A DNA stretch of 64,000 nucleotides, taken from positions 5,403 through 69,402 of the IMG/VR virus record IMGVR_UViG_3300025073_000048; one strand, given 5' to 3'. The position numbers were made by a program, and so were the translations under genes. Shown here one piece after another: positions 5,932 to 56,167 of this stretch. A model generated the notes under the pieces. It was not told where the DNA came from. It saw only the letters and a list, made by a program, of their open reading frames with translations, and did no database searches. Each line of letters begins with the position of its first letter. The stretch's first letter is position 1. The stretch is from a virus.

Positions 5932-6143
5932 TGAGCCCTATATTGATCAGGTGCCGACCATGACGCGCGTGTCGCATCGCGTGAGTCACGACTGGTGGAT
6001 CTTGTGTCAACGCCAAATGCTGAAGATCTGCGAACGTCCGATGAAGCGTTCAATGGAGATTCAATATCCACGCCTAGCCCGGCAAACCTCCCGCTGGCGA
6101 ATTTCTTTGCGGACCATTTGTGTGTGGCAAATTTCCACTTCAT
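5928..6143 (-). CDS. Small hypothetical protein
   Basis: 71 aa, 4-nt overlaps with both neighbours. Confidence 0.45.
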   Translation of the reverse strand: MKWKFATHKWSAKKFASGRFAGLGVDIESPLNASSDVRRSSAFGVDTRSTSRDSRDATRASWSAPDQYRAQ

Positions 6144-7141
6144 GAGAACACCACCGCACTCACATTGCCGCTGCTATCGACCGTCACCGTCACGGTAATC
6201 CCACCGTAGCTGTAGACTTCTGTCCCTGTCCCCGCACCGGTCACGTTGCCCACAAGCAGCGGAGCGAGCCTGTCAATGAGCGTGTCGAGGGTGGCTAGGT
6301 TCGTGGCCGTAGCCAGCCCAGAGAGTGCCGTGGCCAGCTCGGCGTTGGTGGGAATGTCGGCCACGGCTGTCGTCAGAGCACCGATCTCCGTGTCAATGTA
6401 ACTGGCAATTGTCACTTGGTTGGCGGCTGTTGCGTACGATGCCGCCGCCAGTGTCCGGGCTTCAAACTCAGCCACTGTTGGAACGTCGGCGATCTCCGCT
6501 GTCGTGGCGTTCCCACTGACGGTGCCAGTGATATTCGCCGTCTGATTGCCTAGGCCCGTTGTGGCGGTCAGCGTGTAGCCGGTCTTGGAAGCCGCTGCGA
6601 CTACCACACCAGCCGTGCCCGTGTCGTCGATGATGTTCTGCATCATCTGCCCGTACGTTCCAACGCCACCGTACGACACCGTTGCCGCCGTCCAGACCCA
6701 TTCTGCGATCGCGGCTGCCACATCCGCTGCGAACGTGGCCGCGTCAATGGCACCAGCCTTCACAGCCTCTGCGGTGATGGCGTCGTTGGCGACTTCGTTT
6801 GTCTTGGAGGCCCACGGAAGCAAGTTCGTTCCATCCCAATAGCCTACGATGGTTCCTTGCAGCACGTCCGTGATCGCCGGTGCACCACCGGCCCGCTTGA
6901 AGATGTCCACCCAGTACCAACCAGCAACCATGTTGCCCGTGATGGCCGGGAACGTGCCGACGTAGAAGTAATTGCCACTCGACTCTGTGAGGGCTATGTC
7001 ATAGTCGGCCCAGTTGGCGGCAGTGACCGCCTCGAAATTCGGCGTGCCAGCGGTATTCCACTGCGTGCTCGTCTTGGAGCGGATCGTTGCGTAGAGTGTC
7101 ACGCCCGTTTCGGTGCCGCGATATTGAATTTCGCCTGCCAT
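6140..7141 (-). CDS. Virion structural/fibre-like protein
   Basis: 333 aa, A/T/G-rich. Confidence 0.55.
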   Translation of the reverse strand: MAGEIQYRGTETGVTLYATIRSKTSTQWNTAGTPNFEAVTAANWADYDIALTESSGNYFYVGTFPAITGNMVAGWYWVDIFKRAGGAPAITDVLQGTIVGYWDGTNLLPWASKTNEVANDAITAEAVKAGAIDAATFAADVAAAIAEWVWTAATVSYGGVGTYGQMMQNIIDDTGTAGVVVAAASKTGYTLTATTGLGNQTANITGTVSGNATTAEIADVPTVAEFEARTLAAASYATAANQVTIASYIDTEIGALTTAVADIPTNAELATALSGLATATNLATLDTLIDRLAPLLVGNVTGAGTGTEVYSYGGITVTVTVDSSGNVSAVVFS

Positions 7142-45334: not shown

Positions 45335-45858
45335 ACCTCCACCAGCGTTTCTTCGCAGCCGCTCATAATGCGCTCAATGATTACGGCGCCGGTGTGATTC
45401 GCATCGTTGCGCATCACGTAGCAGTGTGTCGCGCCGCCACAGTCCTCACAAAGGAATCCCAGCGCGAGCATCATGCCCTCACAGTCGCGATGCACTCCAG
45501 CCATCACAGCGGTCGTCGCGTACGTCGCCTTCTTCACGGAAAGAACGGCGTGCAACGCGAGTCGCATGCTGTCTGTCATGGGAGCATCCGTGTGGTCACT
45601 GACAACGATTGCTTGCACCAACAGAAAGTTTTCCCAGCCAAACAGTCCATCAGTTCGTTCGATATGCACAAACGCGCATAATCCAACAATCTCGCCATCA
45701 TCGTTTAATGTCAGCAACACTTTGCCTTCGTGTCGCACGAACGCGATGACGCTGCAGGTCGTTGACAACACGTTGCACTGCCGATCGCGCATGTACCGCG
45801 CGACCTTTCGCAGCTCGGTCAATCTCGCGTATCTCGTTTCCACTTCAGTCACCCCCAC
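45331..45858 (-). CDS. Hypothetical protein, possibly GNAT-like fold
   Basis: DGEIVGLC...LLVQAIVV pattern; weak. Confidence 0.4.
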   Translation of the reverse strand: MGVTEVETRYARLTELRKVARYMRDRQCNVLSTTCSVIAFVRHEGKVLLTLNDDGEIVGLCAFVHIERTDGLFGWENFLLVQAIVVSDHTDAPMTDSMRLALHAVLSVKKATYATTAVMAGVHRDCEGMMLALGFLCEDCGGATHCYVMRNDANHTGAVIIERIMSGCEETLVEV

Positions 45859-45860
45859 GG

Positions 45861-47282
45861 TTAATCGAACGCGATGGTCGTTTGAGCGCTATTGGCACCG
45901 TCATCTCGGAAGGTCGTATACTCCCCCTCCCAAATGACGGGGCATTCCTTGGTTGGGCCGTTCCTTTGCTTGGCCACGATGATCAAAGCCGACTTCGGAT
46001 CTGGCATTTCACCAGACGCACCAGGATTGCTCAGGTAGTACGCATCGCGGTGGACGAACAAAACCACGTCGGCATCCTGTTCGATCGATCCTGACTCGCG
46101 CAGGTGGCTTAAACGGGGCTTCCTGTCTGCCGTGCTGTCTGGTTGGCGGTTTAGTTGGGCCAAACAGACCACCGGAACCCCCAATTCGCGGGACAAGGCT
46201 TTCAGGCCCGCCGAGATCTTCGCAACCTGCTCCTGTCGGGGGGTTCTGCCGTTGTTTGTGTCAGGCGAAACGATCTGCAAATAATCCACGACAACGAGCC
46301 CCAAACCGCCGCGCCGTTTCAGCCTGCGAGCCAGCGCGCCGATCTCCGCAACGCCGCGCGTCGGCGCATCGTCGATCCACAAAGGCAACTGCGAGATCGC
46401 CGCCGAGACGCTGACCAGTTTGCGACGTTCATCTGCATTGAAAGTACCATTGCGAACTTTATAAGAACTCACTTCCGCCGTGGCACACATGATACGTTCG
46501 GTGATCTCCATGCGTGTCATTTCGAGAGACACGATCAGCACCGGAACATTGATGCGCGCCACGTTCGTCGCGATGTTCACGGCCAACGATGTCTTGCCCA
46601 TCGACGTGCGTCCTGCCACGATGATCAACTGGCCTGGGAGCAAACCACCAAGCGTCTCATCGAGCGCCGAGAATCCTGTCAGCACGCCCGCAACGCGACC
46701 GTCTTTCTGTCGCTTCTCGATCGATTCAAGTGACTCGCGCACCACGTCGCGAATCTGCACGCACTTCTCCGTCGTCACGTGCTCCGACCCCACATCCATG
46801 ATCAATCGCTCGGCCTTCGCGAGCATCTTGTCGCACTCGTCCGAATCGTCGTGAGCGATGCTCGCAATCTCCACACTGGCGTAGATGAGTTTCCTCCGCA
46901 CAGCCAAATCCCGCACAGTTTGAGCGTAATACACGGAATGCGCCGCGTTCGGAACGCTCTGGGTGATCTGCGTCAGTCGTGTGATGCCGCCGACAAACTC
47001 AAACTGCTGACTCCGTTTCAGCTTGGAGATCAACAGCGCGATGTCGATCCGTTTTCCTGACACGTGCATCGCGCGCATCGTCTCGAACAACACTCCATTC
47101 GCGTCATCGTAAAAGTCCGACTGCTTCACGAGTGGGATCACTTCGTCGATCATGTCGGGCTTGAGCAACAGGCTTCCCAGCAACGCCGTCTCGGAAGTCG
47201 GGTCGCTGGGAGGTGTCATTCCGTTGTCACCGCAATCACTGTGGGTGTGAGGCGGTGTCTCTTTGGTCTTCGTCTTCGCCAC
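45861..47282 (-). CDS. dnaB: Replicative DNA helicase DnaB
   Basis: AGRTSMGKT, SLEM, VVDYLQ, LAQLNR, LRESGSIEQDADVV, KQRNGPT. Confidence 0.95.
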   Translation of the reverse strand: MAKTKTKETPPHTHSDCGDNGMTPPSDPTSETALLGSLLLKPDMIDEVIPLVKQSDFYDDANGVLFETMRAMHVSGKRIDIALLISKLKRSQQFEFVGGITRLTQITQSVPNAAHSVYYAQTVRDLAVRRKLIYASVEIASIAHDDSDECDKMLAKAERLIMDVGSEHVTTEKCVQIRDVVRESLESIEKRQKDGRVAGVLTGFSALDETLGGLLPGQLIIVAGRTSMGKTSLAVNIATNVARINVPVLIVSLEMTRMEITERIMCATAEVSSYKVRNGTFNADERRKLVSVSAAISQLPLWIDDAPTRGVAEIGALARRLKRRGGLGLVVVDYLQIVSPDTNNGRTPRQEQVAKISAGLKALSRELGVPVVCLAQLNRQPDSTADRKPRLSHLRESGSIEQDADVVLFVHRDAYYLSNPGASGEMPDPKSALIIVAKQRNGPTKECPVIWEGEYTTFRDDGANSAQTTIAFD

Positions 47283-47296
47283 GGTAACGGTTCTTT

Positions 47297-48100
47297 CTAT
47301 GAGAGCTTCGGGACTTGCTTCATCAAGTCATCGAAGTTGGGGATTTCGTTTTTGAGAGTCTTCACGAAGTAAGCCAGCGGGCGCTGCGGCCTGGGGGAAA
47401 CCATCCTGGTTCCATTCGCCGCGCCCATCACGGTCGCCAACGAGAGTTTTCCGGTCGTCACGCACCAACCGAGTTTTCGCAGGATCGGGTCCTGAGAACG
47501 AACCCGGAGGATTTGCTGGAGCGCTGCAGCGGTGCTGTGGATTTCTGCTTCCGCCTTTTCCGGCTCCCTGATCTGATCAGATAAATCCTGTTCCTGTTCC
47601 TGATCCTGATCCTGATCCTGGCTTCGAAGGGGCTTCGAAGGGGCTTCATAGCCCCTTCCTGTTTTTGACGGGTCGGACAATGAAAATGACGTGGCATACC
47701 GTTGATAGAAGTCCATAAAGAATGGGGACTTACGCATTGAAAGCCATTCTTTTTCGATGCCCTTGATGCGGTTGTCACGAGGCGATAGAGGCTCCCCAAT
47801 CTGGTGGGAAGCCATCTCACGCACAAAAACATGCTCTGCAGCCCTGTTGTAGGACGCAAAAAGGGCCTCTGATACCCTTCGAAGCCCCTTCGAAGCCCCT
47901 TCATCAGACATCCCTGTTTCATGAAGGAGCAGTGGCCACGGAAGGTAGTACAGACCAATCATATTGGCACTTGGACATGTCATGAGGTACACCGCAATCA
48001 ACTGCGCTTCCATGCCTTTTTCCCTCAGTAATTTTCCCGTTTCACCAGTCCAAAACGCTGGTGAAACTTTGGCATAAGTGCGCATTGAAACATCCTTCAA
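47297..48100 (-). CDS. Phage replication initiator/replisome organiser
   Basis: YAKVSPAFW...LIAVYLMT...IGLYYLP N terminus; QDQDQDQEQE linker; internal 11-bp repeats; upstream of dnaB. Confidence 0.7.
   Translation of the reverse strand: MKDVSMRTYAKVSPAFWTGETGKLLREKGMEAQLIAVYLMTCPSANMIGLYYLPWPLLLHETGMSDEGASKGLRRVSEALFASYNRAAEHVFVREMASHQIGEPLSPRDNRIKGIEKEWLSMRKSPFFMDFYQRYATSFSLSDPSKTGRGYEAPSKPLRSQDQDQDQEQEQDLSDQIREPEKAEAEIHSTAAALQQILRVRSQDPILRKLGWCVTTGKLSLATVMGAANGTRMVSPRPQRPLAYFVKTLKNEIPNFDDLMKQVPKLS
47620..47902. repeat. Two oppositely oriented clusters of 11-bp repeats (GGGGCTTCGAA); candidate ori iterons
   Basis: 47620-47657 GGCTTCGAAGGGGCTTCGAAGGGGCTTC...; 47875-47902 CCCTTCGAAGCCCCTTCGAAGCCCCTTC. 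Confidence 0.6.
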
Positions 48101-49635
48101 GACGCGAACGTGTGCGCCTGCAGTTCCTTACCAAGCGTTTCGTCGCGTGTTGCTTCGGCGGTCAGGATATATACACCGCGTGCCTTCGCGTGATCGTCAA
48201 TGAACTTCCTGTTCCACACGTCCACGCCCTCCCACGCTTCCTGCGGGATGAACAACAGACCGCCATCCCCGACACGCTCCACACCGATCTCAATCGCGAT
48301 GTGCCACTTCTCTGTAGCACTCAGCTCGTGATACGGCGCCCACATGTCCTTCGCTTCCACGTAGCCGTACACACGCTTGTGCACACCCTCGGACACGATC
48401 TTGACCCACTTCGATTCAATCGCGTCAGACAGCACCGAATCCGTAATTCCAGCGGCTTTTCGGTACCTTTCCGCTTTCTCGCGCCGCGACTTCGCCGACT
48501 CCGCAAACGCGGTGACGGAGGCTTGCTTCATGCGCGCATCACGCACACGCACGCCATCCTCCATCGCCAGTTTCGCCGCGTCATACGCTGTCTTGTACTC
48601 AGCGACCTGCTCATCGGTCGGGCGCACGTAGTTGTCCGAGTCAGCGATGACCTTGAGGCACGCCGCACGTCGTTCCGCGTGCGTGCTGATCAGCTCCGCA
48701 CTCTCACGTGCCAGCTTGACGCCCGAGTTAGCCGTATCAATCTCACGATCGCACAATTCGATCGAATGCTGAATCTCGTCCATTTGCTTCAGCAAATCCT
48801 GCTTGTGCTGCACGAGGCCATCGACCTTTCCCTGAGCCTCCGTGACTGCTTTCTTCGCTTCCTCCACGCTGGTAGGGATGTTGCGGGCATCCCAGCGAAT
48901 CAGCTCCTCGCGGGCCTTCTGGGCCTTCTCAACTCGCTCGGCTGCCACCTGCTGGTGCTGGACGGAGTGGGAATACTTGTCCTGGGCTTCAAAGAACGCC
49001 GCCTGCAGCTTCTCGGGGTCGTGCTCCTTGGTCATATCCACCGCGTCGATCTGCTCCTTAATCGACTGCGCCTGCTGCTCATCCTTCTCAGCGGTCTTTT
49101 CCCACGTGCGAGCCTCGGCCTGATAGTCCCGTGCGATCTTCGCCGCCATGTCGATCAGGTCCCCCGACTTGAGGGCCTCGGAAGTCACGATCGTCTCGAA
49201 CTCTTCCGGGTCGAACTCGGGCCGCGTGTCGAACAGGTGCCGATCGGCCTCCACCCCGGTCAGGGCGATCAACGCCTTGATCCGGCGCTTGTCCGCCGCC
49301 ACCTCATCCTTGACGCCAGGGTCCACCAGCGAGGCGAGGTTCAGCTTCCCTTCAAGGTGTTCCACGGCGAACTCACCAGCACAGCGCGTCTGCTTGGGGT
49401 TAATCGCCACGTGTACTCCGAGCCCGTCGATCCGACCTTTCTCCGACCCATGACGCAGCGGCAAACCTCCCTCACCCGCCGCCACGTCCGCCAATGACCC
49501 CACCAGGATCGACTTACCGACTCCATTCGGACCCACAATCGTCGTCACTCCAGGCGACTCCAGCGTGAACTTGAACTTCGGGATCGGGCCCAGGTTTTCG
49601 ACTTCCACAGTTTTCTGATTTTCCTTCACGGTCAC
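48097..49635 (-). CDS. SMC/Rad50-like coiled-coil P-loop ATPase
   Basis: VENLGPI, Walker A GPNGVGKS, long coiled coil, degenerate signature LSATEK; GTG start after GGAG. Confidence 0.7.
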   Translation of the reverse strand: MTVKENQKTVEVENLGPIPKFKFTLESPGVTTIVGPNGVGKSILVGSLADVAAGEGGLPLRHGSEKGRIDGLGVHVAINPKQTRCAGEFAVEHLEGKLNLASLVDPGVKDEVAADKRRIKALIALTGVEADRHLFDTRPEFDPEEFETIVTSEALKSGDLIDMAAKIARDYQAEARTWEKTAEKDEQQAQSIKEQIDAVDMTKEHDPEKLQAAFFEAQDKYSHSVQHQQVAAERVEKAQKAREELIRWDARNIPTSVEEAKKAVTEAQGKVDGLVQHKQDLLKQMDEIQHSIELCDREIDTANSGVKLARESAELISTHAERRAACLKVIADSDNYVRPTDEQVAEYKTAYDAAKLAMEDGVRVRDARMKQASVTAFAESAKSRREKAERYRKAAGITDSVLSDAIESKWVKIVSEGVHKRVYGYVEAKDMWAPYHELSATEKWHIAIEIGVERVGDGGLLFIPQEAWEGVDVWNRKFIDDHAKARGVYILTAEATRDETLGKELQAHTFAS

Positions 49636-49661
49636 TACTCCTAAAACTTCACATGTGTTGA

Positions 49662-50655
49662 AAAACACACTCACAGCGGATGATTCGATCCGCGATTATG
49701 GTTGCTCTCTACCAAGATGGTTCAATCTCCTTGTTTGAATGCGTTCCGAGCACTTGTTTCAGTCGGGTGGCATGACTACGCTCATACTGTTTGGTTCACT
49801 CATCTTTCGAGGCTGCGCTCACGGGAGGTGATTCAATCTGCCGTTCGAAGAACATGTTTCAATCAGCTTGCATGCCTACGTTCACTACATTTGGTTCAAT
49901 CACGAGTCCTGACTACGTTCAAGATCGCTGATTCAATCGGCACGCATGACTGCTCTCGTGATATCTGTTGCAATCTTCAGGTTTGGATGCGCTCAACACT
50001 GCTGGGTATCTGCGGGCTTGACTTCACTCCGCCTTGATGATTCTGTCGCCGGACTTGATTGCGTTCACGACCAATGATTCTCTCCGAACGTGTGACTACG
50101 CTCCTCCCACCTGGTTCAATCTGGGCAGATGGCTGCGCTCACGCCCATTGGTTCTATCCATCGAAATGGCTTCGCTCACGTGGTTTGGTTCGTTCGACTT
50201 CTTAGGCTGCGATCACCTGACGTGTTTCATTCACAGCCCTCTGTCTGCGATCCAGCAACTTGTTTCAGTTCGAGAACTTGGCTGCGATCTCCAAAAATGA
50301 TTCTGTCCGGCGCCATGTCTGCGATCGGCGGTGTTGATTCAGTCACACATTTTGTCTGCGATCGGGCGTTTTGGTTCAGTCTTGCCAGATGGCTACGCTA
50401 CTTCGATCGGATTCAATCCCAAGCTTTGGCTACGTTCCTTGCATATGCTTCAATCAAGTCAACTGGCTGCGATCACACATCCTGTTTCTATCTCAAGGAC
50501 TGTCTTCTCTCAGCGAAATTGTTTCAATCTATCCTTTTGGATACGATCAACCCAATTGCTTCTTTCAGGAATGCTGGCTGCGCTTATACACTGTGGTTCA
50601 CTCACACTACATTTGCTGCGCTCTCACACTCCGATTCAATCGCGTGTGATGGCTA
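49662..50655 (-). repeat. TIGR-like dual-repeat array 1 (~27 units, 37-nt period)
   Basis: + strand alternation TG(G/A/T)TTCAATC-N8-TG(G/A/T)CT(G/A)CG(C/A/T)TC-N8; 10-mer starts at 49681, 49718, 49755, 49792, 49829 ... 50557, 50594, 50632; spacers vary. Confidence 0.9.
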
Positions 50656-52851
50656 ACCCGCGTCCTCATCCGACGCATCTTCCTCGACCTCTTCACGAGT
50701 CTTGCGTGTAATACGCTCTCCCTCGCGCAGATCCTTCAGAGACTTGCCTGTCATCGCAAACGGCCAGTTTGGAATCTCAATAAAGTGCCGGTGATCGCCC
50801 TCGCAGTGCTCGAACACGTAAGGCACGGGCGGCTCCGTCCCGAAGTAATCCACGTGCATGACGTGATGCAAGTGCGACAGGAAGATCTTCACCGCGAACC
50901 GGCGCGCTCGTGCATGCAGGTGCCCTGGAGGCAGCGTACCGTCCTTGTAGTGCTTGTACGCCTCCGTTGTCTTGCCGACCTCGTGCATACGCACTGCCGC
51001 CAACTCAGCGAACTTCTTCTCACCGTTCGCCGCGACCTCCGCGTCCTTCCGTTGACGATAGAGCTGGCCGTAAATAGCTCCCTCTTTGTTCTGCGTCTTC
51101 ACGAAGCACTCCCCAATCTTGAATGCGCAGTTATGGACTGCGATACCATCGGCGACATAGCTTTCGTCCTCTTCTACCTCCAGGTTGTAAACAGGACCAG
51201 TGTATGGAACTGATTCGGGTGGGTTCAACTGAAGCCATACACCGTCTGGTTGCCACTTAGAAACATTCGATGATTTCCATTCAACTGATTCATCACACAG
51301 AATTTGTTTCCCGAATAAATCTCGGTCGTGTACTTCAATGTGATATGCAGTGTTCCCAGCGGGTAGAATCCGCGAGCTAAGACCACTGACGATTCCGCAC
51401 CGCAAAAGCAATTCCTGAATCTGAATAGCAAGAGTCAGGGAAATGGTTCCATAAGAAACTGTCTCTGATGTGTAGTGCCCATTTCCTTCAAATAACCCTC
51501 GCAGCAATGAACGGCACAGAGAAATGTCCATCGACATCCAGTTATTAGGAATATGTTTGTTTGCTGAATAGACACCAAATAGCTTATTGAACGACTCGGA
51601 CAGAAGTGATGAACATGCTTTGACACAGCACCCATCATCACACTTGCTCATAGAAAGGCTGCTATCAAGGCCAAACACATACTTAAACACAGCCCTTACG
51701 TGGTCATGCAAAACAGTTTCTTTTTTGTGAAACGCGAACTGCACAACCCCGTCGCTGCCAGCACACCCCTCTGCGATAAACAATCCGACAAAGCGAGCTA
51801 TTTCTCCGTTAAGCTCTACACGTGTCGGCACACGAGAAGCGACCGGAGATCTATCAAGATAAGATTCACACTCGATCGCCGGGATAAATCCTTCACTTGG
51901 AATAACGGGGACCTTTACCATCCACCCAGGCTGCAATTCAGACGCGTTAATCCAATCCTGTCCGTAATTGAAGTTTTCCTTGGATCTATTCTTCCCTCGC
52001 ACTATCATGCTTACGCCTCCCTGTGAGTAACCAGTTGATTCACCAATTTCACGCAATGTCTTACCCTCTTGGCGCATGCGAATCATCTGCGAAGCGACCT
52101 CATTTCTACCGTTTGGAGTAGAAGCTCGCGTCACCTTAAATCGTTTCCGCCCTTCTCCTTCGTAAAAACACACTGGGACTTTGTCGGCGAGAACAGGGTG
52201 GTTGGGAGTAAGAAGTGGTCCGCGCGCGGCTAGTCCGCGACATGTCAGATGCACCAGCGATCCCGTGAAGTCATTCTCAATGACGTGCGTAACCTTTCTC
52301 CACCGTCCGAGATGAGTCAACACGAGATCACCAATACGCACAGAGTCAATTGGAATAGTCCCTCGCTTTGTGATTACGAGAGTTGTTGGATGACAGCACA
52401 GAATCTTCAGGCGCGCATTCCAGGGACGGCGTGTCTTCGGCTCCCACTTCATCGTTGGGTCGAGTCCAGCAAATCGCCAGAAATGCCCTGCCGTCTTGCA
52501 GCGGGACACGTCCAAGTGAGACAGCAGACCAGCCGAAATGACCGGCCCAATACCGACCTGACTCATCATCCACTGACCCACCGAGTACGTCTCCGAGAAC
52601 GCCTTGAGCGATCGCTTAATCGCGTTCTCCACACGTGTCATTTCATCATTCACCCATTGCAACACTCGCCCCGGTTCCTTCGTCCCAAGCGACCGCAGTT
52701 GACCAGCAGTCGCAATCCGGTACTTCTGCATCGTGTAGTAGTTATCCACCAGAAATCGCACCTGCGCGCGATCCATCAGACCTGCCGCTGTGACTAAGTC
52801 TTTGGTGAGCTTGCGTGCAATTTCGATCGGTTCGTCAAAGGTCTTGTCCAT
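50653..52851 (-). CDS. Tas (TasA-like) Nop-domain RNA-guided DNA-binding protein precursor containing an intein (732 aa; spliced 309 aa)
   Basis: Coiled coil (YYTMQKYRIA), GIGPVISAGLL, FWRFAGLDP, WNARLKIL/CAFKIGECFVK, YGQLYRQRK, HARARRFAVKIFLSHL resemble Nop/IS110-Tnp fold; no RuvC or HNH; flanked by arrays. Confidence 0.8.
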   Translation of the reverse strand: MDKTFDEPIEIARKLTKDLVTAAGLMDRAQVRFLVDNYYTMQKYRIATAGQLRSLGTKEPGRVLQWVNDEMTRVENAIKRSLKAFSETYSVGQWMMSQVGIGPVISAGLLSHLDVSRCKTAGHFWRFAGLDPTMKWEPKTRRPWNARLKILCCHPTTLVITKRGTIPIDSVRIGDLVLTHLGRWRKVTHVIENDFTGSLVHLTCRGLAARGPLLTPNHPVLADKVPVCFYEGEGRKRFKVTRASTPNGRNEVASQMIRMRQEGKTLREIGESTGYSQGGVSMIVRGKNRSKENFNYGQDWINASELQPGWMVKVPVIPSEGFIPAIECESYLDRSPVASRVPTRVELNGEIARFVGLFIAEGCAGSDGVVQFAFHKKETVLHDHVRAVFKYVFGLDSSLSMSKCDDGCCVKACSSLLSESFNKLFGVYSANKHIPNNWMSMDISLCRSLLRGLFEGNGHYTSETVSYGTISLTLAIQIQELLLRCGIVSGLSSRILPAGNTAYHIEVHDRDLFGKQILCDESVEWKSSNVSKWQPDGVWLQLNPPESVPYTGPVYNLEVEEDESYVADGIAVHNCAFKIGECFVKTQNKEGAIYGQLYRQRKDAEVAANGEKKFAELAAVRMHEVGKTTEAYKHYKDGTLPPGHLHARARRFAVKIFLSHLHHVMHVDYFGTEPPVPYVFEHCEGDHRHFIEIPNWPFAMTGKSLKDLREGERITRKTREEVEEDASDEDAG
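51130..52398 (-). mobile_element. Intein (423 aa) with HTH and LAGLIDADG homing endonuclease
   Basis: Block A CCHPTTLVIT, block B LTPNHPV, LAGLIDADG motifs GLFIAEG and GLFEGNG, block F/G VYNLEVEEDESYVADGIAVHN followed by Cys; visibly lower GC. Confidence 0.92.
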
Positions 52852-52885
52852 GTTATGTTTCCAATTCGTGATGACGAAATGCGGT

Positions 52886-53440
<555 letters not shown>

Positions 53441-53460
53441 CTTTGGTCTCCTAAGTAAAA

Positions 53461-53909
53461 GTAAAACGCTCTGGAAGGTTGTTAATTCCGAATACTTGGC
53501 TGCATTCCTTGCCATTGGTTCAATCTCAAATATTGATTGCGATCTGGTTCACTGGTTCACTCACCTTCCATGTCTGCGTTCCGAAACTTTGGTTCAGTCG
53601 CCGAAGGTGGCTACACTCGACCCATTTGATTCAATCAACGGTGGTGAGTTCGTTCGGGGGTTTGTGTCATTCATATCTACGACTTCGATCCAGGGATCTG
53701 TTTCAATCTGACTGATAGTCTGCGATCTTCAGATATGGTTCTGTCTGGTCTTCTGTCTCGTTCGAGCTGAATGATCATCTGGCGATGTGACTACGATCAA
53801 GCGGTTTGATTCATTCCTGCTTGATGCCTGCGATCGGCTGCATTGGTTCATTCAAACGATCTGTCTGCGATCTGGATATTTGGTTCCATCACTAACAATG
53901 GCTACGCTC
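53461..53909 (-). repeat. TIGR-like dual-repeat array 2 (~12 units)
   Basis: Same repeats: 10-mer at 53516, 53553, 53590, 53627 ... 53807, 53844, 53881; last 11-mer TGGCTACGCTC at 53899-53909. Confidence 0.88.
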
Positions 53910-53911
53910 CA

Positions 53912-55078
53912 TCACTCAGCAGGAAACGTTTTCAGCTTCTGATCTCGGTACTCACAAGCAAGCGAGTACAAGTCCTGATCCATCGTTTCCTTGTTGTCGA
54001 AGATGTACGAGCGCCAGACCTGACGGGCCTGCTCCAGCGTGGCCGTCTTAAACAGCTCGAAATGGTACTCGCGCAGGTCCTCGGGAATCTCCTCGATCAC
54101 TTCCGGCTCTGACTCCGACTTCTTTGTCTCCTTTTTCTCTTCCTCCTGCGGTTCAGAAGTCGTCGTCGATTCCTTTTCCTTTTTCTCTTCCTCCTGCGGT
54201 TCCGACTTCGCCGTCTCCTTTTCCTTCTTCGAGCCCTTTTCCCGTTTCAACTCCTTCGCCGCGCGCTCCGACTTCGACTCGCCCGGCGTTTTAGCGGTTC
54301 CCTCCGTTTCGACCTGCTGAAACGCAAACCAATCCTCGGGCTTGCTCATCCCATCCTTGAGGCTCGTGTAGATCTTGCGCAGCTCCAGCATGTGCTGCTC
54401 CGTCAGCGACTCCGTCTTTCTCTGCGCACGTGTTTCAATCATCTCCGTCGTGATGCCGAACTGCTTGAACACCTCCAGCATCTTGCGGACGCGGTCCACC
54501 AACGGTTCCTTGTGGCCTTCGGTCAGCGTCTTCTCGCACTGCTCGACCGCCAGATCCTGCACGTCCTTGGGAATCACGGACAAGATGCAACTCCGTTTGC
54601 GCCGGGCCCCGACGTTTAGGATCATCTCGGCGATGTCACGGGGATCTTTCAACAGGTAAGACCCTTGCTTCGTGTGGCGCACGTGAGGAACCGTGAACGT
54701 GGTCGCGGATCGCACGTTCGTCTCCATGTCCCACGCATACGCCTCACAAACGCTTTCCCCGTTCGCCTGACTGAGTTCGCGAATCCCGTAGTCCAGATTC
54801 CCCCAGCCCTGCGCCATCGCTTCGGCGAGCCGGATAGACGGCCCTGTGACCTGTTCCTTGCCACGTGGGTACGAGTACATACTGACCTCGGCCAGACCAC
54901 GCCGCTGACACGCGGTTGTGATACGTGAGATCGACTCGTTCACATCGCGGGGGAATCGCTTGGCGATAACGATCATCGCCTGCACTTCCTGCGCCTGCCG
55001 ACTCGCGGCCACCTCCATGAGGTTGTGCTGGCCACGCTTCTCTTGGTCTTCGATATGGGTACTGAGTTCGTTGCTCAT
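53912..55078 (-). CDS. Putative single-strand annealing/recombination protein
   Basis: AKRFPRD, YSYPRG, GPSIRLAE, WGN, AWDMETN, ARR.R.CI family typically paired with YqaJ exonucleases. Confidence 0.6.
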   Translation of the reverse strand: MSNELSTHIEDQEKRGQHNLMEVAASRQAQEVQAMIVIAKRFPRDVNESISRITTACQRRGLAEVSMYSYPRGKEQVTGPSIRLAEAMAQGWGNLDYGIRELSQANGESVCEAYAWDMETNVRSATTFTVPHVRHTKQGSYLLKDPRDIAEMILNVGARRKRSCILSVIPKDVQDLAVEQCEKTLTEGHKEPLVDRVRKMLEVFKQFGITTEMIETRAQRKTESLTEQHMLELRKIYTSLKDGMSKPEDWFAFQQVETEGTAKTPGESKSERAAKELKREKGSKKEKETAKSEPQEEEKKEKESTTTSEPQEEEKKETKKSESEPEVIEEIPEDLREYHFELFKTATLEQARQVWRSYIFDNKETMDQDLYSLACEYRDQKLKTFPAE

Positions 55079-56079
55079 TGCTTGGTCTTGCGCTCCAGAA
55101 GTCGTTCATACGCCCGACGCTTCACCTGTCCGACACGTGCGCGGACCTCTTCAACGTCAGACTCCAGGTAAAGTGATTCCTTCACGAGTAACCGGCGCAG
55201 TTCCTTCTCGCCACGCGGGAAACGGCCCAGCTCAGCAGAACCCATCGCAGACAGAATGCGATTGCGAGTTTCGTCGCGCTGCACTTCCAGCTCCGAGATC
55301 TCCTCGCCGAGCATCTTGTACCGCAACCACCACTGCAGTTCCTCGTCACCGAGTTGAACAACGGTGTTCGCCTGCAGACCATTCACAGAAGTGATCAACT
55401 CACGAGTCCGAGGATGCGTCCAGTTCGGCTCTGGAGGGCACCCATCAGCGATCCGCTCGCACAGTTCCTTCTCGGCCTCCGCGATCGCTTCAATCAGGTC
55501 GTCATTGCGCTGGATCGGATACACCCGCAGCGTGAAGATGCCGAACATCACCGCCACGTCCACCTGATCCACGCCCATCACAGCCATCTGCTGCTGCGCC
55601 TGAAACAGAGTGTCATCAGGCACCAGATCCGTGCCCTCCTGGCCGTACTTAGAGTCATCGTCCTCTGCGTACATGCGCTGCGTGGTAGCCTTCGTCTCCA
55701 GCAGACGGCGATGCTCCGACAACACGATCGCGTCCGGTGTCGCAGTCATATAGGGCAGCGTCGGGTGGATGAACATCCTGTCATTCTCCACGCACTGCAC
55801 GCCCAGCTCGTCCGAGTATTCCTTCACGATCACCGACTGCATCCGGCGCCCACGCCGCAGTCGCTTCGTCTGATCGTCATCGAACTGAATCTCACGTATC
55901 CTGCGCGCCGCGAGATACAGATCCAAACTCGTGCGATAATTGCTGCGATTGCACGCGGCAGCCGCATCACTCGCACCAATCCACAACTGCCGTCCTGGCT
56001 CGTAGTGCCGTCCCTCCAACCACATCGGGTCGCCTTCCTTCGGACCCTCGATCGGTACATGCTGCTGTGTCACCATCAA
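55075..56079 (-). CDS. YqaJ/lambda-exonuclease-like recombination nuclease
   Basis: IGASDAAA, ATPDA, LLETKAT, QAQQQM. Confidence 0.85.
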   Translation of the reverse strand: MMVTQQHVPIEGPKEGDPMWLEGRHYEPGRQLWIGASDAAAACNRSNYRTSLDLYLAARRIREIQFDDDQTKRLRRGRRMQSVIVKEYSDELGVQCVENDRMFIHPTLPYMTATPDAIVLSEHRRLLETKATTQRMYAEDDDSKYGQEGTDLVPDDTLFQAQQQMAVMGVDQVDVAVMFGIFTLRVYPIQRNDDLIEAIAEAEKELCERIADGCPPEPNWTHPRTRELITSVNGLQANTVVQLGDEELQWWLRYKMLGEEISELEVQRDETRNRILSAMGSAELGRFPRGEKELRRLLVKESLYLESDVEEVRARVGQVKRRAYERLLERKTKQ

Positions 56080-56167
56080 CCAATCCTTTCACTTGCGCCG
56101 TCCAATTCTGTCGCACGCGCTCATCAGCGCGATAAGCAGTAGAAAAGCGAGTCCGCCAAAGAAGGCA

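Follow-up and report, generated by a model that had tools for sequence, protein, structure and literature searches.

A TIGR guide-RNA array with an 11-nt edge repeat next to an intein-containing tas gene in a groundwater phage

Directly downstream of a tas gene on the minus strand of a groundwater phage lies a series of short, degenerate repeats alternating with variable blocks, and the question posed by this locus is whether these form a genuine array of guide RNAs and, if so, how far the array departs from those already described. The window examined (64,000 nt) makes up most of a 69,402-bp virus record (IMG/VR, IMGVR_UViG_3300025073_000048) that is rated complete by CheckV. The series of repeats, referred to here as array 1, is an authentic guide-RNA array of the published TIGR-Tas family. 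It deviates only by a single base added to one of the two repeats, and it belongs to a kind of system already known.

Array 1 (nt 49668 – 50656, minus strand) consists of 27 units with a period of 37 nt, 26 of them with two spacers and one collapsed and lacking spacer A. Read on the minus strand, a unit comprises an 11-nt edge repeat (consensus GAGCGCAGCCA), an 8-nt variable block, a 10-nt loop repeat (consensus GATTGAACCA) and a second 8-nt variable block. Loop-repeat anchors are found for all 27 units, from nt 50641 to nt 49690, although three of these (50270, 50010 and about 49975) deviate from the motif and were placed by eye. The 26 intervals between anchors measure 37 nt in 22 cases, 38 nt in two, and 35 and 26 nt in one case each. 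Both 38-nt intervals (50641 to 50603 and 50270 to 50232) represent +1 units with a 9-nt first spacer; the 35-nt unit (around nt 50010 – 49938) has a loop repeat of 8 nt, i.e. 2 nt short; and the 26-nt unit (49864 to 49838) has no first spacer and an incomplete edge repeat. The stop codon of the tas ORF (TAG, nt 50655 – 50653) sits within a 5'-truncated first edge repeat (nt 50656 – 50650). The array thus opens with the last 6–7 bases of an edge repeat, and it closes with the first five.

The 37-nt period is evident from self-comparison. Identity at a lag of 37 nt is 0.487 in array 1, compared with 0.258 ± 0.014 in 1000 first-order Markov shuffles (z = 15.8), the shuffle maximum at any lag from 5 to 120 being 0.325. 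Lags of 74 and 111 rank next in array 1, while two stretches of flanking coding sequence have their maxima (0.344 and 0.295) at other lags. Tandem Repeats Finder, run with a minimum score of 30, does not report the array. When the 27 units are stacked on the loop anchor, with slips left uncorrected, the variable blocks carry 0.01–0.26 bits (columns 12–19) and 0.03–0.32 bits (columns 30–37), against 1.0–1.8 bits per column in the repeat cores, and the repeat interiors are degenerate. Conserved columns of the edge repeat are G1 (21/27), A2 (22/27), C10 (23/27) and A11 (23/27), and those of the loop repeat are G20 (25/27), A21 (26/27), G24 (25/27), A25 (26/27), A26 (25/27), C28 (25/27) and A29 (24/27). 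These data bear out most of what the initial annotation had proposed for the region, namely 27 minus-strand units of 37 nt that start on the Tas stop codon, a CA before and a GA after each spacer (the end and start columns are conserved in 21–26 of the 27 units), and irregular units (one of 26 nt, one 2 nt short and two of +1) just where the anchor intervals place them. The same annotation had singled out the relative conservation of spacer and repeat columns as critical, and it is the repeats, and not the spacers, that are conserved.

Four other public runs have yielded contigs over parts of array 1, the irregular units included, which show no differing letters and no gaps; those of run X3, for example, span nt 49733 – 49965 and 49996 – 50786. 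As the irregular units recur unchanged in these contigs, the irregularities are not errors of a single assembly. None of the runs listed as containing the stretch is an RNA run. No spacer turnover is visible in these contigs, which are identical wherever the stretch is covered. Spacers have a G+C content of 49%, compared with 57.5% for the genome. Complementarity between spacers A and B of the same unit averages 3.37 pairs, against 3.18 ± 0.22 for shuffled partners, and unit 1, with 7 of 8 positions complementary, is the lone outlier.

A second array (array 2, nt 53525 – 53909, minus strand) is located upstream of tas and has the edge and loop repeats of array 1, the 37-nt period and a lag-37 identity of 0.436. 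Between array 2 and tas is an ORF of 209 aa with an Imm5-like Pfam assignment (nt 52886 – 53515, minus strand), which is conserved solely in two of the related loci described below (L002 and L083). Inside this ORF, just upstream of tas, the trinucleotide GCA (plus strand) is repeated over 176 bp (nt 52977 – 53152; 29 copies of a 6-mer according to Tandem Repeats Finder), and the contigs of the other runs break at this trinucleotide repeat. On the other side of array 1, a gene for an SMC/ABC-like ATPase (nt 48097 – 49629, minus strand) has a GTG start after an AGGAG motif, about 38 nt past the array end, and is probably co-transcribed with the array. This ATPase was considered as a partner of Tas and rejected, being present in only L002 and L083, from the two closest phages, among 125 loci. 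Neither promoter-like nor terminator-like sites were found on the minus strand between nt 49300 and nt 54300.

The tas gene (nt 50653 – 52851, minus strand) probably starts at the ATG at nt 52851, although the open frame reaches a GTG at nt 52953, giving an ORF (nt 50653 – 52953) of 766 codons. It is divided into an N-extein (nt 52399 – 52851) and a C-extein (nt 50656 – 51129) by an intein of 423 aa with a LAGLIDADG domain (nt 51130 – 52398), placed immediately before an invariant Cys of the Nop domain. The splicing motifs are kept (Cys1, the terminal His-Asn and the +1 Cys). Judging from these motifs the intein would have to splice out, leaving a predicted Tas protein of about 309 aa, and the function of the whole system would depend on that reaction.

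Compared with structures in the PDB, the window protein matches TasR (9mty) with an E value of 1.4e-7 across both exteins, and TasH with 2.4e-3 across the N-extein. A profile of its clade (25 relatives) gives 2.4e-22 for 9mty, 1.3e-11 for TasH and 1.3e-4 for IS621, with ISCro4 also behind. These profile matches start past the nuclease domains of TasR and TasH (residues 108–123), and the part of the profile that lies before the matched region is about 45 positions long. Pfam matches on the tas ORF are limited to intein domains and a weak match to the IS110 C-terminal domain, with no nuclease outside the intein; lacking a nuclease domain, the protein is of the TasA type. The intein-less orthologue at L002 (310 aa, 76–77% identical) gives an all-helical AlphaFold model (pLDDT 91.4), and the ten best PDB matches of this model found by Foldseek are all TasH or TasR chains. 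Dual-repeat TIGR-Tas proteins process pre-tigRNA by themselves through a Tyr/His dyad in the C-terminal loop. In SpTasH, Y289 and H296 are described as the processing dyad that cuts pre-tigRNA (PMC13421893), and by alignment they fall opposite Y712 and H721 of the window ORF (766-aa numbering).

The tas intein is an odder feature than array 1 and represents a separate finding. Eight of the 150 best family representatives are over-long, and every one of these proteins gives an intein-domain Pfam match (that in P0031 is weak); in the four that were aligned (P0046, P0076, P0095 and P0114) the intein is at the same site. The tas gene of L083 carries the intein (81% identical) while that of L002 is without it, and on this pattern of presence and absence the intein looks mobile, homing among phage tas genes. 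No report of a natural intein in a Tas gene was found in the literature searched, and neither PMC12045711 nor two preprints of 2026 mention the word intein. Among INPHARED phages, megablast of nt 45800 – 56100 gave no match, and tblastn of the whole Tas ORF retrieved seven records, all by the intein part only.

To place the 37-nt unit, 125 related loci were surveyed, 81 on viral contigs and 45 on metagenome or genome contigs. Among the viral loci the best period is 36 nt in 65 and 34 nt in three, nine show no clear array, and a 37-nt period is seen at L002/L003 (one contig) and L004; one further viral locus, with a best period of 48 nt, was discarded as a tandem repeat and not an array. The metagenome and genome loci have a 36-nt period in 19 cases and a 37-nt period in L083 and L084, the rest being other or weak. 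The array type of the window flanks tas in the relatives, with different spacers, and degenerate repeat interiors and occasional slipped units are found there too. The nearest Tas relatives on genome contigs (loci L085–L127, 44–54% identity) are mostly from Acidobacteriota MAGs (Bryobacterales, Solibacteraceae and Pyrinomonadaceae), and the metagenomes that contain DNA of the window come from groundwater and soil; relatives and sample types together give a hint as to the host of the phage.

The relatives of the window protein have 36-nt units arranged as 10+8+10+8. In a block analysis of 61 loci with 36-nt arrays, which was crude, the longest variable block is exactly 8 nt in 44, and in 16 of those 44 both blocks are a clean 8 nt. 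Spacers of 8 nt are the rule in the Tas branch to which the window belongs. The view that such spacers are non-canonical therefore finds little support, both on these counts and because they are known from SpTIGR, and the proposal in the initial annotation of a variant subfamily with 8-nt spacers and 16-bp bipartite targets is not supported in that form; the part of that proposal that stands is an array with two repeats and two spacers per unit that goes with the neighbouring Tas, with a 37-nt unit and 8-nt blocks. The genuine departure is in the edge repeat, which has 11 nt compared with 10 nt in the relatives, the extra and variable base being in the middle of the repeat at position 6. Published TIGR repeats are given as 8–12 nt, with spacers mostly of 9 nt and uniform in size at any one locus (PMC12045711), so that an 11-nt edge repeat falls within the described range.

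The extra base is common to all five readable arrays of one small Tas clade. A quickly built tree of N-terminal Tas sequences (98 distinct ones) places the five 37-nt loci in a group with L075 (SH-aLRT 99), the contig of which stops about 170 nt past tas, where the array is unreadable. The 37-nt trait is, as far as the compared sequences indicate, bound to this clade. The spacing between the Tyr and His of the putative dyad, which was scorable in 20 of the 125 loci (two regex artefacts were counted by eye), is 8 residues in the window and 7–8 in four scored 37-nt loci, against 6 in SpTasH and in 12 of the 15 scored 36-nt loci. L006 and L053, which combine a 36-nt period with a spacing of 8, are counter-examples to a link between spacing and period.

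Comparison of individual units within the clade gives some indication of how these arrays change. When the units of the window and of L002 are compared, just one of the 936 pairings comes down to 1 difference in 16 spacer positions, and all others differ at 6 or more. The near-identical pair consists of window unit 18 (short loop, about nt 50029 – 49995) and the L002 unit at nt 6504, and this shared guide is either conserved under selection or the product of gene conversion. The irregular units of array 1 had initially been read as scars of deletion or slippage, which is plausible. The 2-nt-short loop variant, however, is also present in the sister phage L002 (about nt 6541), in the unit adjoining the shared one (the two units lie within L002 nt 6485 – 6560), and so is not simply a recent, private scar of array 1. 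L002 and L083 have a few collinear units in common, which differ at 4–5 of 16 positions. The comparisons suggest that the arrays change by descent with point mutation as well as by replacement. L002 also has two small ORFs between tas and the main downstream array (nt 5938 – 6450), each directly followed by array units, and here the first edge repeat overlaps the ORF stop, as in the window.

Which of the two repeats is processed can be read from the covariation between copies. In 25 of 26 window units, the base at position 8 of an edge repeat is the Watson-Crick partner of that at position 4 in the following edge repeat, while the same two positions within one repeat pair in 18 of 26, and none of 20000 permutations reaches the cross-repeat value. 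In L002 the corresponding figures are 21/22 across repeats and 8/22 within them (again 0 of 20000 permutations), and in the five 37-nt loci taken together they are 92/94 and 62/94, with a permutation mean of 63.9 and none of 20000 reaching 92/94. The 94 cross-repeat combinations comprise 76 C-G, 14 T-A and 2 A-T pairs, and 2 non-pairs. Pairing of position 3 with position 9 is kept in the window (17/26) but not in L002 (8/22) or L084 (3/17), a point against the mechanism proposed below. Position 6 is variable (C in 66, T in 16 and A in 12 of 94). The published scheme of the processed guide draws pairing between its two ends (Fig. 6G of PMC12045711), and an array that is truncated at edge-repeat halves is the signature given there for the edge repeat. 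From the truncated ends of array 1 and the pairing between consecutive copies, the 11-nt repeat is the edge repeat, i.e. the one cut in processing, and the loop is the 10-nt one. The same two observations make the functional unit one that runs from mid-edge to mid-edge, and the cut site is likely to be in the three unpaired central positions of the edge repeat (5–7).

Both repeats start with GA (21–26 of 27) and end with CA (23–25 of 27). According to PMC12045711, shared start and end motifs (box D and box C) in both repeats are required by a symmetric dimer, and their letters covary between the repeats; in array 1 the letters are GA and CA, unlike the UG and CCA of TasR, and they covary between edge and loop repeats.

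The two halves of each edge repeat belong to different guides, the first to the preceding and the second to the following one, a mosaic structure seen in the cross-repeat and within-repeat counts for the five loci, and from this the evolving unit is the mature guide, mid-edge to mid-edge. It is conceivable, though unlikely, that the arrays of the 37-nt clade grow or are repaired by insertion or exchange of guide-sized modules at the processing site, copied for example from processed tigRNA, instead of by duplication of repeat and spacer. If so, the extra junction base and the longer Tyr-His loop would record a shift of the site at which cutting and joining take place. The same mosaic pattern is expected from ordinary selection in favour of compensatory point mutations, which is the more likely cause.

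Among the known systems nearest to it, SpTIGR-TasH of Salicola phage CGphi29 is likewise a phage-borne, dual-repeat array right after tas with two 8-nt spacers. The two share a near-identical edge motif, a first edge repeat that is truncated alike, and the Tyr/His dyad. The SpTIGR array is described as having 16 nt of variable sequence (PMC12045711), and its 8-nt spacer A as paired to DNA (preprint 10.64898/2026.08.11.744272); as read here from NC_020844, its units are 10+8+10+8 = 36 nt. The window differs in its 37-nt unit (11+8+10+8), with position 6 extra in mid-edge and a different loop sequence, and in its protein, since SpTasH has an N-terminal HNH nuclease and cuts DNA, whereas the window Tas has an intein and no nuclease domain. 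In lacking a nuclease domain it resembles FpTIGR-TasA of Flavonifractor plautii, a Nop-only Tas with a dual-repeat array, the guides of which are bound by TasA in pull-downs (PMC12045711); unlike in the window, the variable sequence of FpTIGR amounts, by the published description, to 18 nt (9+9), and its guides are 36 nt long (PMC12045711). No other solved structure matches the window protein as well in sequence as TaTIGR-TasR (9mty), which shares its Nop plus coiled-coil fold. TaTIGR-TasR also shows shared start and end motifs in its repeats and an extra edge pair supported by covariation (PMC12045711), but it has a RuvC nuclease, 9-nt spacers and repeat ends of UG ... CCA, where the window has GA ... 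CA. MbTasA is a further nuclease-less Tas, which binds DNA and represses in a guide-dependent manner, and CsTasR and PateTasR are stem-loop systems, unlike the window (both according to preprint 10.64898/2026.09.09.750476). CRISPR arrays are similar in being repeat-spacer arrays that are made into guides by transcription and cutting. They have, however, a single repeat of 25–36 nt, one long spacer per unit and cas genes nearby, whereas array 1 has two alternating repeats of 10–11 nt and two 8-nt spacers that, by analogy with its relatives, would read opposite strands. A CRISPR-Cas assignment was rejected on the basis of the 10–11-nt repeats, the 8-nt spacers and the absence of Cas families from the seven neighbouring proteins scanned.

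The locus as a whole is very probably a dual-repeat TIGR array of a 69.4-kb phage that works as follows, the steps being modelled on published relatives. Array 1 would be transcribed on the minus strand within a long recombination/replication operon, and a dimer of spliced Tas would bind the units via the shared repeat ends (GA at the start, CA at the end). The transcript would be cut midway through each 11-nt edge repeat, probably by the Tyr/His dyad of Tas itself. The resulting guides of about 37 nt would comprise the 3' half of an edge repeat, spacer A, the loop repeat, spacer B and the 5' half of the edge repeat that follows, and each guide would pair with itself at its two ends. The two spacers would then read the two strands of a single 16-bp DNA site. 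A nuclease-less TasA is reported to repress, and inactive TasR is an RNA-guided repressor too (both in preprint 10.64898/2026.09.09.750476). As the window Tas has no nuclease, the likeliest outcome, after the example of MbTasA, is binding and blocking (repression) of a target in the host or a rival element, and not cleavage. Four of the 27 units, the irregular ones, may be non-working.

Candidate targets were sought as contiguous 16-bp sites in two geometries, one in which spacer A precedes the reverse complement of B, and one in which spacer B comes after the reverse complement of A. Both were tried because the description of cleavage in PMC12045711 states the cut side in two disagreeing ways. 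The 35 guides of the window have no site with 1 or fewer mismatches in their own 69.4-kb genome, where the best sites have 2–5 mismatches and site counts at up to 2 and up to 3 mismatches are no higher than for mispaired-spacer controls. Nor is there a site with 1 or fewer mismatches for these guides in the whole sister phage (G001), or for the 64 guides of L002, L083 and L084 in the genome of the window.

This lack of targets, in its own genome, in the sister phage and reciprocally, would suit a decaying or inert TIGR relic with no working guides, as would the 4 irregular intervals among 26, the degenerate repeat interiors and a tas gene interrupted by an insertion of 423 aa. Such a relic is very unlikely, as compensatory edge pairing can be kept in 25 of 26 window units only if the RNA is still under selection. 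The intein, moreover, has kept its splicing motifs, and other full-length homologues carry it at the same position; the Tyr/His dyad is intact, and degenerate interiors and slipped units occur in the relatives as well. Protein-binding iterons, for example those of a replication origin next to initiator and DnaB genes, would likewise present conserved 10–11-nt motifs at regular spacing, and array 1 does lie just upstream of genes for the ATPase, a DnaD-like loader and DnaB. A DNA site of this type, however, leaves the Watson-Crick covariation of neighbouring repeat halves unexplained, there is a second copy of the array across tas (array 2), and in most of the 125 loci an array of this type comes after tas, while their neighbouring genes differ and the replication genes are common to only 1–2. 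The iteron reading is accordingly given very little credence.

That the region encodes a repeat protein, on either strand, is hardly credible at all. The plus-strand frames have only 5–8 stops and open stretches of 117–186 codons, but the openness of this strand results from repeats that carry no stop codons in reverse complement, and its four ORFs overlap in different frames and have no Pfam match at an E value of 1. The minus strand has 16–23 stops per frame and a longest open stretch of 56 codons, and a period of 37 nt is no multiple of three. A curated box C/D RNA family was also considered and rejected: a search of nt 49300 – 54100 against Rfam, with E values up to 1, gave no match in either array, and all seven matches in this region are spurious, lying within the trinucleotide repeat (nt 52948 – 53207). 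The reading preferred here remains that of a TIGR guide array serving the adjacent Tas.

The picture of TIGR-Tas function is unchanged by array 1, but the family, known since 2025, gains in it a natural example that is well resolved. The example illustrates that sequence by itself can tell which repeat is processed, and that the length of the unit has shifted by 1 base exactly at the processing site, in step with a small Tas clade. This is of use for array-finding software and for the choice of orthologues, as a guide longer by 1 nt at its termini would appear to be tolerated in nature.
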